DNA from: Amphiscolops sp. MND2022
Lineage: Eukaryota
Assembly (NCBI GenBank): GCA_964187785.1
Contig: OZ076409.1
Span: 51,710,001 to 51,774,000 of the forward strand
Direction of reading: 5' to 3'
DNA: 64,000 bases
Made by a program: the position numbers and the translations under genes. Each line of letters opens with the position of its first letter. The first letter of the stretch is position 1. The notes below the pieces were generated by a model. It had not been told where the DNA came from, made no database searches, and saw only the letters and a program-made list of their open reading frames with translations. This document shows, one piece after another, positions 8,546 to 36,051 of this stretch.

Positions 8546-8954
8546 ATGTTTATATGCATTCAAAACTCAGTGTTCATTTTAATTCTAATTCATACCACAG
8601 CATCATAAACCAGTCAAAGTAAACAATGATTCAATAAATAATTAGTTATCATTACTGAGCTCTACCGTGCATAGTACGTATAAACTGCATTCAATGCAAG
8701 TTGCACACGTGAACACGTGTGTTTCATCCACGCATTTACGTGCAAATAAAATACCTTGTAGCTTCTAATTAGTACAATTGATTGATCTGTCAACAGGTTT
8801 CCTATTTTAACAAAACAATTTTAAAGCAGCCCTCATTAATAGTTGCCTAACTAATTTTAATTTTGGTCCCTGTCGTGAGCACAGTCACCGGAATGATTGG
8901 TTAACTTGTTATTTTGGTCTGGGTATTTTGAGCCAGGGTATTGGCAAGGATCTA

Positions 8955-9145
8955 TTTTGATCCCTGTCGTGAGCAACATCAAGAAAAGTTGTAACAAATA
9001 ATCTATACGAAGTTGAAACTTTATCAAACCGAAAACAGTAGTTTATGGAATACCGATCTTGAATTATTGAACTAAAAACGAAGTTTGGACCATGTGCCTT
9101 ATCCTCCCTCAGATACATACTGTTTCTTATCCAACAACACCCCCC
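8955..9145 (+). repeat. 191-bp direct repeat, left copy
   Basis: Matches 35418-35608 with one visible mismatch. Confidence 0.9.
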
Positions 9146-9642
9146 TCCCCATCCTTCAATTGGTCAAATGGAAAAGAGAATGAGAGAATTGATTTCAAAA
9201 TTGAATTACTTTGTATCATGGTTAAGCATTAAAAGCTTTGAATAAAGCCACGTGACATATACGTCACGTTACATATACGGTACATGTATGTTTTAAAAGT
9301 TTATGAATGTGTGCAAAGCAGCGGCAAGTGGGGATGTTGGCGCGGTGGATAAGTCCATCGGATGTGACTGTTAGTCACTGAGTACCACAGGATCGATCCC
9401 AGCCATTAGCACACTGGCGAATCGATACATACAACTCTTACAAAGATACCCTTCATATTTGGCAGCTCATGTCTCTCGGGCCGAATATTCCACATTGAAG
9501 GAATCAGCACCGCTGCAACATCCTTTTTGATGAGAGGAACTCCAAGGTGTGACCTTGTTCTGTGCCGCAACTTTGTGTGCCCCACAAATGATGCAATGAT
9601 GATTGCTAATGATTGCAATGATTAGAGATGGCGAGATACTAG

Positions 9643-10067
9643 CAGGGATGTTAAAATATTTATTTATCGTTTCGATAACCGCGATAAAATATCGGAATAC
9701 ATTATTGTTGCCTAGAAAATATTCAGATTTTTTATTGTCCAATAAAAATGAATTCCAATAATCGTGTGAAGCGTGCCTCGATTATCGACCAGTCTAAAAG
9801 CGAAACACATTTTGTCGCCAGAAAGAAAGCGATTATACCCAATGCATGTTGAAGCCCTCATGTTTCTCAAAGCAAACGAAAATTTATGGGATGCAATACT
9901 GGTTTCGAAACTTTAGCAGCTAGAACTGTGAACAACGATAATCGAAAATACTTCGATAATTTATTGTTGAGTTTGTAAAAATCCGATAATTTATCGCTGT
10001 GTTTGAAAAATATAAATAATTTATTGTTGTTCACAATATTATTGCGATAAAATAATTAACATCCCTG
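9643..10067 (+). mobile_element. hAT-type non-autonomous element retaining the last 38 codons of a hAT transposase
   Basis: TIR CAGGGATGTTAA/TTAACATCCCTG, 8-bp TSD GATACTAG; 9800-9916 translates AKHILSPERKRLYPMHVEALMFLKANENLW..., a hAT dimerisation-domain tail. Confidence 0.88.
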
Positions 10068-10476
10068 GATACTAGTATCCAAATTCTGGCCCCCATTCCT
10101 GGCTGCCAATGATATTCATAAAACTCTGACAAAGACACCCTTCCTATTCGGCGTCTCATGTCGCCGAATATTCCACATTGATGGTATTAACACCGCCGAA
10201 ATATCCTTTTTGATGAGAGGAACTTTGATGGTGAATTCCCAAATAACATAAGAGCAAATAACATAAAAACGAAATTAGTTTCAGATAACATAAAAATGAA
10301 ATGAGTTTGACTAAACATAAAAATAAAATTGTTTACGAGAAGGTTTTAGCTGTCAAAAGCATTCACAATTCAAAAGATTCACTCAAAAAAGTATGAAAAT
10401 TACAAATAAACTTTCGTGAGTTCGATTACTTAACCGGGTATTCGGTTTTATTTTTATGTTATTTGAACCTAATTTT

Positions 10477-10767
10477 GTAGTAGTAGTAGTAGTAGTAGTA
10501 GTAGTAGTAGTAGTAGTAGTAGTAGTAGTAGTAGTAGTAGTAGTAGTAGTAGTAGTAGTAGTAGTAGTAGTAGTAGTAGTAGTAGTAGTAGTAGTAGTAG
10601 TAGTAGTAGTAGTAGTAGTAGTAGTAGTAGTAGTAGTAGTAGTAGTAGTAGTAGTAGTAGTAGTAGTAGTAGTAGTAGTAGTAGTAGTAGTAGTAGTAGT
10701 AGTAGTAGTAGTAGTAGTAGTAGTAGTAGTAGTAGTAGTAGTAGTAGTAGTAGTAGTAGTAGTAGTA
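10477..10767 (+). repeat. (GTA)97 microsatellite
   Basis: Uninterrupted trinucleotide run of 291 bp. Confidence 0.97.
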
Positions 10768-32976: not shown

Positions 32977-34220
32977 TTGAAAGCGAATGGTCAATGTGTG
33001 AACAACTTCTTGACTCAAGGACGACCTTCGGTGGACGAAATTGAAGATCTTTCCTACCCACTTGAAGAATGGATGGAGGAAATTGAACCCTTGGTTTCCC
33101 ACTTCAATGCCCAAAACTTCGCAACCCTCAGTGAGGAGAATTTGAAGCAAGAACAAAACAAATGCCTGGAACTTCAAGAAGGTGTTCAAGCTCAGATAAT
33201 CTCAATTGGCAAGTTACAGAAGAATATGTTGAGGCCTTGTACAGTAGTGATATTATTAAAAGCAACAAAAGGCAAATCTCAAAACCGAATATCTCTAAAA
33301 CAGCAGCGATTTTTGAAAAATGATAAAGTGAAAGTTTCTTAGATTTTTATCTAGTTTACAAATATGTTTGTTTGAAGACTATGCGATGAAAATTGTAGAA
33401 GTTACGATAGGCCATTTTTAGCCAAATTTAGGTCAAAATTGAGGTTTTTCTCACTTTTGGGCTACTTTTCCCCAAAATTTTTGAAAAAATTTTTGTTCAA
33501 TTGACCCCCCTGATTTAACTGAAGCTCCTGATATGTTTTGATTTAGAAATCATCTTAAAATCGTAAAGAAAATGCGCTGTAAAATTGAACTTTTTCGAAA
33601 ATACATGTATTAAGATACGATTTTGAAATATAACCACTTAAAACAAGCTCGTACTAATACAATTTACAAAATTTTCGAGAAAAAATTATATTGTCAGATT
33701 CAAAATGTTTGGGAGAATTTTTCTGTTAAAATTGTTTTGAAATCAAAAAATTGTAAGTGGGTCAAAAATTCAAAAAACTAAAAAATGATGTTTTGGAAAT
33801 CGCTCTCGACCAATGAAATGAGCGCGTGAGACATTATTTAGCCAATGAGATTTGTTTATTTGCTCTCTTTCCGCGTGCTTTGTTGCTTAATAATATAGTT
33901 GTTGTAGTAATAATAATATCACTACAGTACAAAACCATTCAAAACTCACAGATTCAGAACAGCACCCAAGATAACGAATCAGTGGCTAGTTTGAGCGACC
34001 GCGTGATCGGAATCATGAACAGATACAACGCCATTTCTTCCAACGTGGAGGAAAGAGCGCAACAACTGTATTTCGACATAGAGGAGTCCTTACAGGTATT
34101 GAGATTGTGATTGTTATGTATCCGAAGAAACTGAAAGAACAGCTGAAGAATCTATCGCAAGTTAGAACAAATCTGGAGGACACCGGTGCCGAAATTGACA
34201 AGATCAAGGCCAACGCTGAG
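32977..34220 (+). pseudogene. Coiled-coil-like coding remnant disrupted by a MITE and a frameshift
   Basis: Glu/Gln/Leu-rich frames 32977-33240 and 33928-34220 on either side of the TA-flanked insertion. Confidence 0.45.
33242..33927. mobile_element. TA-flanked MITE; partial second copy at ~15287-15430 in the intron of the Tudor-like gene
   Basis: TIR CAGTAGTGATATTATTA / TAATAATATCACTACAG, TA on both sides. Confidence 0.75.
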
Positions 34221-34634
34221 CAAATGTTGAAGAGTATTCCTCACAATCGAATTTATTATTTCGAACAATATATTGTCAATTCATGTTATTATTCATTTAT
34301 TAAATAAAAATATAATTGATATTATTCAATAAAAAATTAATAACGTACATATGTGGTTTTGATCCCTGTCGTGAGCAACATCAAGAAACGTTGTAACTGG
34401 AGTAACTATAAATTGAACAAGTAATTTTTGTCGGGCACAAATTCTGGCTGAGATTACAAATCTCAACGAAAAAAACTTTTGCCCATTTTGATGTAGTTTT
34501 AAAGAGGCTCTCAGTTTGGGGATCACATAGTGTCGCCCGTAACAAGACCCACGACGCGAACGTGGCCTCTGAAGGGTCTCAAAATCTAATTTACAAATTC
34601 TACAAAATTATACTAACTACACTTTTACAAAAAT

Positions 34635-34850
34635 TTAATTATACAAAATGCTATTTACAGGTAATCTACAGTAAGGACATCTAACAAGGTCTGCACTCGC
34701 TAAACTATCTAAATAGTGTTTTATACACTCTCTACAAGCTAAATGTAATTTATGTTCTAGGTGAAAACTTTGCAATTCTACTATTCTAAAGTTTTCGTAG
34801 CAGATCATGCATTCTTTATTCTTCGAAGCAGCAGCTTTCTTCACCCTCAT
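34635..34850 (-). CDS. 71-aa stand-alone RING-finger protein
   Basis: CMIC...H...HLACREC...CPYCR. Confidence 0.7.
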   Translation of the reverse strand: MRVKKAAASKNKECMICYENFRIVELQSFHLEHKLHLACRECIKHYLDSLASADLVRCPYCRLPVNSILYN

Positions 34851-35417
34851 CGATTGGGCTATTCAGAATGTTGGCTGTTGATTTAGAATGGCGAAAGGAT
34901 AGAAGGAAGAATACGAATAAGAATGAAATTTTAAAGACTTGTAGAGATTTTAGAGATTTGTATAGAGCGAGGGAAGAAATGAGTGACAAAATGAAAGACT
35001 TCACGAAAAAGTTTCAATTTCGTAAATCCTTTCACGAACCATGCCGGGACTGAACGAAATTTTCACCGATACCGAACACCTGTGACGTCATAATTAACTG
35101 TATTGCATTTCTGATGCGCGCTAACCTTTCAGCTATATCGCCTTGAAAGAAATCAATTACCATTCGCAAATGTTGAAGAGTCACTCTTCAACATTTGCGA
35201 ATGGCCCATTCCCGGGGAATTGATTCCTTTCAAGGCGATATAGCTGAAAGGTTATAATAAATAAAAATAAATAAAAATAAAAATAAATGAATTAAAATAT
35301 ACAAATAATGAATTCGATTGTGAGGATTCATGATATTATTCATTTATTCAATCGATTAAAAATTAATTGATGTTTATTGATATTATTCAATAAAAAATTA
35401 ATAACGTACATATTTGG

Positions 35418-35608
35418 TTTTGATCCCTGTCGTGAGCAACATCAAGAAAAGTTGTAACAAATAATCTATACGAAGTTGAAACTTTATCAAACCGAAAACA
35501 GTAGTTTATGGAATACCGATCTTGAATTATTGAACTAAAAACGAAGTTTGGACCATGTGCCTTATCCTCCCTCAGATAAATACTGTTTCTTATCCAACAA
35601 CACCCCCC
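35418..35608 (+). repeat. 191-bp direct repeat, right copy
   Basis: Matches 8955-9145. Confidence 0.9.
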
Positions 35609-36051
35609 CATCCAAGACTTCCCAAACAAATGAAAGTAGGTCTCATAATGAAGGGGCGGTTGCTTCATTGAACTTGGTAATTTTGGTCCCTGTCGTGAGC
35701 ACTTCCTGTAGTCAGATTTACTGTTTATGCGATTTGATACTGTGTAGGCGAATCAAGCAGTGTAGTTACGAGTCGGCGTGTGTAGCTCACCAGTAAAAAC
35801 CCGTAATTGCCAGAATTATGTGTAAATATGAGATGCACAGTGTAGTTAGTCAAATTGCTTAAACTAGTCATATGGTGTAAGCTAGTCAATTACTGTACTA
35901 TCCAATGGTGTAAACTAGTCAACGTACGTAGCAAAATCAACGAGTGTAACGGCCTATCAATGCGCGTAATGTGAGAAAAGTGTAAAACTTCCAAAAAAAT
36001 ATTCGCGCTCTGATTGGACAAAAATCGAACTAGCAGGATCCTGCTAGTTCG

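Follow-up and report, generated by a model that had tools for sequence, protein, structure and literature searches.

The window analysed here is a stretch of 64,000 nucleotides from Amphiscolops sp. MND2022 (contig OZ076409.1, positions 51,710,001 to 51,774,000 of the forward strand), and it holds a DNA transposon of 27,838 bp (8236-36073). Both ends of the element begin CATTACGATACAC, giving CATTAC...GTAATG terminal inverted repeats (TIRs), and it is flanked by a 2-bp GT target-site duplication (TSD) at 8234-8235 and 36074-36075. It carries four genes and, scattered through its non-coding DNA, about 25 copies of a 20-bp motif, TTTTGRTCCCTGTCGTGAGC. We propose, with a probability of roughly 0.55, that this 20-mer is a self-address read by the zinc-finger (ZnF) JmjC protein that the element itself encodes, and that this protein acts against silencing; direct binding of the motif by the ZnF-JmjC protein, taken by itself, seems quite probable from the sequences.

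The element and its genes

Searches with diverged transposases and with the finger exon found eleven families besides the one in the window (W), and all are referred to by letters. The genes and terminal features of the window element are as follows.

8314-8542: left subterminal repeats GTAAGTTAGTCAA, a separate second repeat class, likely transposase sites
13539-15386, minus strand: Tudor-like gene, ~430 aa, in split frames in the window and in a single frame in F and M
17333-19734, plus strand: SET gene; exon 17333-18306 (integrase-like remnant), intron, exon 18727-19734 (SETD8-like domain)
20641-23643, plus strand: transposase; exons 20641-21489 and 21817-23643, start not fixed, DDE core and C-terminal BRCT
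24305-27858, plus strand: ZnF-JmjC gene; 9 predicted exons, open 653-aa frame
35859-35922, plus strand: right subterminal repeats GTAA(A/G)CTAGTCAA

The 653-aa model has three C2HC-type fingers in exons 1-3, followed by a KDM2/KDM7-type JmjC domain, and all 14 PDB matches of the JmjC exon are to KDM2A, PHF8, KDM7 or PHF2 (E 2e-8). The Fe(II) ligands H-x-D...H and the 2-oxoglutarate lysine are kept in the window's protein; among the families, H-x-D and K are retained in 9/9 with the exon recovered, and the second H in eight. No PHD or CXXC domain was seen in the 653 aa (by eye, and by Pfam on three JmjC-region open reading frames, ORFs), and no longer homologue of the finger-3/JmjC exon was scored, which is weak evidence. 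KDM2A reportedly acts on H3K36. PHF8 is described as demethylating the repressive marks H3K9me1/2, H3K27me1/2 and H4K20me1 (PMC11417953).

The SET domain is recognised by Pfam (E 3e-10), with SETD8 as its closest relative (E 3e-7). Within it (19150-19590), a conserved NH reads NY in the W/F/H/X clade and NH in K, M, N and P, and the position that we take to govern methylation degree in SETD8 is F in most families. The preliminary description had named a YR-SET protein; the YR part, in the preceding exon, is at most a catalytically incomplete remnant, its integrase-like character (feature score 0.89) is a lead only, and the integrase-like part had no PDB match. The Tudor label is likewise a weak lead (feature score 0.75) for a gene present in 7/7 families seen near full length, and in Q.

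The element has inserted into the gag-like frame of a Gypsy-type retroelement (2449-8235 plus 36074-36768, minus strand, with gag-, pol- and integrase-like frames). A 2-bp TSD was found in 5/6 of the full-length-type copies examined and also in copy L117. Four other copies are largely collinear with the window element in long blocks, mostly 90-99% identical, and the W transposase exon has at least 107 genomic matches, 100 of them at 86-100% identity (106 of 1,011 candidates scored). The W family is young and abundant.

Several smaller insertions and repeats lie inside the element. Four nested hAT-like miniature inverted-repeat transposable elements (MITEs) with CAGGG ends and 8-bp TSDs occupy ~9643-10067, 28034-28392, 31950-32312 and 32373-32742, and a nested TIR element at ~12950-13312 is missing from two other copies. 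A piece of ~110 bp from the element's own left end lies in the SET-gene intron (18326-18436), present in two other copies and absent from two, and family F carries several internal TIR-bounded pieces of itself. A (GTA)99 microsatellite (10477-10775) adjoins a 62-nt repeat present four times (9480, 10163, 10772 and 10855), and in other copies long (TAC)n runs directly follow the SET domain, near 19673-19690. Many near-perfect hairpins of 35-61 bp, which are local inverted duplications, occur in the non-coding arms, at 11008-11130, 11826-11930, 12809-12896, 31867-31941, 32742-32816 and 35122-35254.

A dispersed motif and its versions in sister families

The motif is present in 23 ungapped copies with 0-5 mismatches, all within 8861-35700 and 18 of them on the plus strand, 5 on the minus strand; two further copies, at 21758 and 29372, are degenerate. 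The preliminary description had counted about 25 copies, at positions that agree with these to within one base.

8861-8974, plus strand: copies 8861-8880 and 8955-8974, left arm
11166-11185, plus strand: one copy, left arm
12632-12743, both strands: a pair, 12632-12651 (minus) and 12724-12743 (plus)
13316-13335, plus strand: one copy, 3' of the Tudor-like gene
17049-17068, minus strand: one copy, between ORF 16219-16686 and exon 17333
18467-18614, both strands: three copies, 18467 (plus), 18528 (minus) and 18595 (plus), SET-gene intron
21599-21776, plus strand: copies 21599 and 21653 and the degenerate 21758, transposase intron
24058-24077, plus strand: one copy, ~250 bp 5' of the ZnF-JmjC start
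25541-25688, plus strand: copies 25541 and 25669, ZnF-JmjC intron 4
27019-27152, both strands: copies 27019 (minus), 27084 (minus) and 27133 (plus), ZnF-JmjC intron 7
29372-29389, plus strand: one degenerate copy with a 2-base deletion
30661-30778, plus strand: copies 30661 and 30759, within a 98-bp tandem duplication
34357-35700, plus strand: copies 34357, 35418 and 35681, right arm

As first noted, no copy falls in an exon (0/23; P ~0.009 counting 13 clusters, the exons being predictions from sequence), and outside the element there is only a partial match of 11 bases at 52187. A matrix trained on the same 23 sites that it scores finds, at 15 bits, those 23 in the element and 0 in the other 36,162 bases of the window, compared with a mean of 0.02 and a maximum of 1 in 100 Markov simulations. 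Genome-wide, exact 18-mers of the motif number 2,198 in 1.07 Gb, where ~0.03 would be expected and the reversed control gives 0, and all 20 isolated places checked lie in or adjoin element fragments, short derivatives or older subfamilies. These were 20 of the ~26 places outside clusters among the first 100 18-mer places listed, all on C1, from which five clusters were also examined.

The 23 copies fall into 14 unrelated flank classes, and between classes the identity is 0.86 inside the motif and 0.30/0.31 outside it, with sharp edges. Some copies do stem from local duplication (flanks are common to all members in classes of 5, 3, 3 and 2), and tandem units occur in some clusters: 98-bp and 54-bp in W, a 55-63-bp spacing in H and 230-bp units in P.

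Ten families, W and nine sisters, each have their own dispersed 20-mer, at 0.6-2.3 per kb in the nine with a matrix. The consensus, the finger-1 residues at helix positions -1/3/6 and the bases at motif positions 17-19 are given below, the triplet counts being partly circular because the family matrices were self-trained.

W: TTTTGGTCCCTGTCGTGAGC; K-N-R; GAG 22/23
F: TTTTACGAACTGTcaTGAGC; K-N-R; GAG 16/19
H: TTTTGTTTACTGGCATGATC; V-N-R; GAT 27/30
K: TTTTGGTTCCAATCgaGGGT; R-H-R; GGG 11/12
M: TTTTGGTTCCAATcatGGGT; R-H-R; GGG 16/22
N: TTTTGGTCCCAATCGTGAGT; R-N-R; GAG 18/19
P: TTTTGGTATCCACCGTGAGT; R-N-R; GAG 12/12
V: ..GTAACGACTCCATGAGC; R-N-R; GAG 11/12
Y: ..TTTCTAAACCGTGAGC; R-N-R; GAG 27/30
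U: motif scored by the V matrix, with 6 and 3 sites in two copies; K-N-R

The motifs of F, H, V/U and Y are exclusive and those of W, N, K, M and P partly overlap, so that a motif is not strictly private to its family (14 W sites, for example, are scored by the N matrix). All four genes are present, in varying order, in W, F, H, K, M, N and P; ZnF-JmjC and SET genes were seen in U and Y, and fingers and transposase pieces in V. Despite the differing motif, sites lie in the transposase intron and in SET and ZnF-JmjC introns in W, F and H alike, and of 81 sites in F, H, K and M only one meets a coding alignment, and then at the margin. Two families carry a second repeat class: in P (L080-L082) the near-palindromic CAGTGGATTCCAC, dense at both ends and also internal, and in N (L070-L072) GTGGAAWCCAGGACA, in 200-bp units.

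Motif similarity tracks finger 1 and not the transposase. W and N share 17/20 motif bases at 32% transposase identity, W and F 14/20 at 69%, and the K/M and U/V pairs share both their finger-2/3 helices and their motifs. In the canonical orientation, in which the N-terminal finger lies over the 3' part of its site, the triplet at positions 17-19 matches the finger-1 code in 10/10 families: GAG with R/K-N-R (7), GGG with R-H-R (2) and GAT with V-N-R (1). The pairings are those of a published zinc-finger table, which lists RSDNLVR with GAG, RSGHLTR with GGG and TSGNLVR with GAT (PMC5260015), if the V of the H finger is read as T-like. The triplet changes exactly in the two lineages where the finger-1 residues change, and not along the main split of the transposases; a rough hand count, made after the match was noticed, puts the chance of the lineage match alone at ~1 in 30. 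GAG was predicted in advance for P, U, V and Y and was borne out in all four, found de novo in V and Y, in P first via the W matrix and again after positions 16-20 were masked, and in U via the V matrix only. Families in which no finger gene was found point the same way: Q, which has just the transposase and the Tudor-like gene, and X, in which the transposase and SET were seen, showed no motif of this class and scored 0 with the matrices expected for them. Because the triplet co-varies with finger 1, and because Q and X show no motif, the candidate readers narrow to the ZnF-JmjC protein.

Several observations weigh against this proposal. For W, F, H, K, M and N, the agreement with finger 1 is post hoc and rests on two changes, and all four advance predictions concerned the majority state, GAG. 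Two other predictions failed: that P finger 3 would have a G-Y-G triplet on the top strand, and that an aromatic residue 2 would go with T at position 20. No consistent register was found between fingers 2-3 and the motif positions. Three fingers usually read 9-12 bp, not 20. The finger helices of W and F are similar, yet their motifs differ at 6 positions. Q was seen in 1 and X in 2 partial, possibly decayed copies, and the first de novo motif scans missed the P and U motifs and ranked that of F low. Among diverged W subfamilies the motif is scarcely better conserved than its flanks (0.84 vs 0.83; n=13, confounded by deletions and locus choice). On the enzyme's side, the catalytic exon matches KDM2A and PHF8 about equally and does not tell KDM2 and KDM7 apart, and H3K36me2, which KDM2-type enzymes remove, is not a silencing mark. 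Finally, the finger code is leaky, an RSDNL finger having been selected on TGG (PMC1920264).

Possible readers of the motif and their effects

If the ZnF-JmjC protein reads the motif, finger 1 would contact the triplet at positions 17-19, and the 5' part of the 20-mer would be read by the rest of the protein or by a partner. The ~25 sites across 28 kb would then tether a KDM2/KDM7-type demethylase along the element, where it could strip repressive mono- and dimethyl lysine marks and keep the element's genes expressible; both the demethylase activity and the anti-silencing outcome are inferred here from the protein's sequence. Since protein and address drift together, each family would mostly serve itself. 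The preliminary description had offered the ZnF-JmjC protein, the YR-SET protein or the transposase as recipients of a self-address, and the finger-1 covariation and the motif-free Q and X favour the first of these and not the other two.

The same protein might read the motif to another end, which we regard as unlikely, although it survives best among the alternatives: KDM2-like removal of H3K36me2, self-restraint, or chromatin made ready for excision together with the SET protein. The near-equal KDM2A and PHF8 matches are compatible with such outcomes, as is the SETD8-like writer that accompanies ZnF-JmjC in the families seen near full length. The youth and abundance of W (100/107 rows at 86-100% identity) speak against them indirectly, and so does the family-specific drift of the address, which fits an arms race of the kind reported for VANC (PMC5735166).

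It is improbable that the motif, as a whole or in its 5' half, is read by the SET protein (via its integrase-like remnant) or by the Tudor-like one, whether singly or jointly with the fingers. Families that bear the motif and were seen near full length have both genes, a 20-bp site is long for a protein with three fingers, and integrase folds bind DNA, which offers a lead; however, the SET gene occurs in X and the Tudor-like gene in Q without the motif, and the finger-1 concordance is left unexplained by either protein.

Binding by the transposase, for synapsis of so long an element or as a self-activator, has precedents in the AtMu1 transposase and Spm TnpA (bioRxiv 10.64898/2026.08.24.746577), and copies of the motif do lie 0.4-0.6 kb from both ends and are retained in many short derivatives (a sample picked by the motif). 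We consider it very improbable nonetheless. W and P have a separate subterminal repeat, motif likeness does not track the transposase, as the W-N and W-F pairs illustrate, and Q and X retain the transposase gene without the motif. Moreover, 9/16 right ends (C1 up to 62.2 Mb) have no motif within 1.5 kb, where deletion in place is possible; one of the nine belongs to an element of 680 bp with both TIRs and a TSD.

Least probable of all is a site for a host factor, or a sequence duplicated passively as a MITE end or as a splicing or RNA signal; the shared flanks of some copies and the weak conservation among subfamilies speak for such an origin, whereas the 14 unrelated flank contexts with sharp edges, the occurrence of both strands within one intron, the 0/20 checked isolated copies outside element DNA and the ten versions in one genome, not expected from one host factor, speak against it. 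In particular, the end of an unrelated MITE is rejected because the copies occupy 14 unrelated flank contexts, and the MITEs nested in the element carry ends of their own. A promoter or RNA signal is rejected on the strand evidence, which includes 22/22 sites on one strand in M regardless of gene direction. Recombination sites are unlikely because the motif is non-palindromic and, judged by eye, part of the recombinase catalytic set is missing; there is no Phage_integrase match in Pfam, and the copies are collinear without inversions.

Class of the element and known counterparts

The transposase was modelled best in an M-family homologue (P0017; predicted local distance difference test, pLDDT, 87.8), whose predicted structure resembles RAG1 (Z 16.9, root-mean-square deviation 4.3, 421 aligned; Foldseek E 5.6e-8) and HzTransib (Z 11.1); the window's own exon gave a poor model (pLDDT 53.5) in which the BRCT alone was matched. 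We assign the element's transposase a RAG1/Transib fold on the predicted structure of that homologue. It had no match to a Pfam transposase family, and distant homologues number 423 proteins at E<=0.001. With the CMCT/RAG group (CACTA, Mirage, Chapaev, Transib and RAG1) it shares a RAG1/Transib-like DDE fold, short TIRs starting CA and a TSD within 2-5 bp, and it differs in its 2-bp TSD and added BRCT. Transib has a TSD of 5 bp. The consensus reads TPYKLK at the place of the RAG1 histidines. Neither C(2)C nor H(3-4)H, the motifs by which the CMCT group is defined (PMC12730594), was found in the transposase alignment or consensus. The transposase represents an unclassified RAG1/Transib-fold lineage with a 2-bp TSD. 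The introns and the kinds of cargo point to an animal as the probable host.

Elsewhere in the window, direct repeats of ~780 bp (42318-43091 and 47391-48172; 96-100% alike, 5.08 kb apart) resemble the long terminal repeats of a non-autonomous retroelement, and a 185-bp satellite-like array (61150-62300) has ~71% identity between units. The CpG observed/expected ratio of the window is 0.8-1.2, and the genome has 5 PF00145 (DNA cytosine methyltransferase) matches of unassigned type, e.g., C10:27908085-27909083 (intronless) and C5:32152052-32153768.

A likeness to the Arabidopsis VANDAL transposons and their VANC anti-silencing proteins had been suggested at the outset, and it holds for the sequence-level features tested: the motif lies in non-coding DNA, favours one strand, recurs in other copies and derivatives, and is specific to its family, with other versions in the sisters. 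VANDAL elements are described as having family-specific short motifs in non-coding DNA and introns, mostly in one orientation and partly tandem, with co-evolution of protein and motif; unlike the present element, they are MuDR transposons with 8-9-bp motifs, and VANC leads to loss of DNA methylation (PMC5735166). Here the motif is 20 bp long and mostly dispersed, the candidate reader is a ZnF fused to a histone demethylase domain, and the element has a RAG1/Transib fold. No MULE or VANC-related Pfam match was found among 20 window ORFs, and the fold search ranks RAG1/Transib first, so that neither a MuDR-type transposase nor a VANC-family protein places the element among the VANDALs.

The activators Spm TnpA and the AtMu1 transposase also offer a parallel, in that family-specific motif clusters are bound by a protein of the element, as we suppose here, and CACTA/Spm belongs to the element's broad transposase group; TnpA, however, is reported to bind the termini and to depend on host DNA demethylases, whereas here the sites are element-wide and the enzymes are the element's own (bioRxiv 10.64898/2026.08.24.746577). 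Arabidopsis REF6/JMJ12 is a JmjC demethylase whose own zinc fingers direct it to a DNA motif, as those of the ZnF-JmjC protein may do, but it is described as a host gene with C-terminal fingers that read six bases (PMC7105484), and the present protein is transposon-borne, with N-terminal fingers and a KDM2/KDM7 match. In layout the element resembles VANDAL/VANC, and in the design of its protein REF6; it belongs to neither. Captured epigenetic enzymes have been described in other transposons, TET/JBP in fungal Plavaka, ESTA and KDZ and SET in oomycete HarbingerS/MuDR, and PlavakaB also begins CAT and has 2-3-bp TSDs; JmjC occurs 0 times in the main text of that account, and its passages on these elements describe no self-address motif (PMC12730594). 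A full-text literature search, the scope of which did not extend to subscription journals, Repbase Reports or supplements, found no account of a transposon that carries a ZnF-JmjC together with a co-evolving address, nor of this element.

Sequence-specific anti-silencing by transposons is known from plants (VANC, TnpA), where it relies on host enzymes, and in animals zinc fingers are known as a host weapon against transposons (KRAB zinc-finger proteins, KRAB-ZNFs). In the present case zinc fingers seem to be employed by a transposon in its own interest, with a histone demethylase that it supplies itself. The arms-race model is directly testable because ten protein-motif pairs occur in one genome and single-residue swaps in finger 1 have predicted outcomes, and such pairs could serve as compact DNA-targeted demethylases. 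More broadly, and at slightly less than even odds, we suggest that a whole lineage of giant transposons with the RAG/Transib fold is equipped with a chromatin toolkit of its own (an eraser, a writer and a possible reader), self-addressed by a zinc-finger code rewritten at least ten times in one genome; this would probably be the equivalent of VANC in animals, with the reader and the enzyme united in a single protein, and it would amount to a natural set of histone demethylases programmed by sequence.

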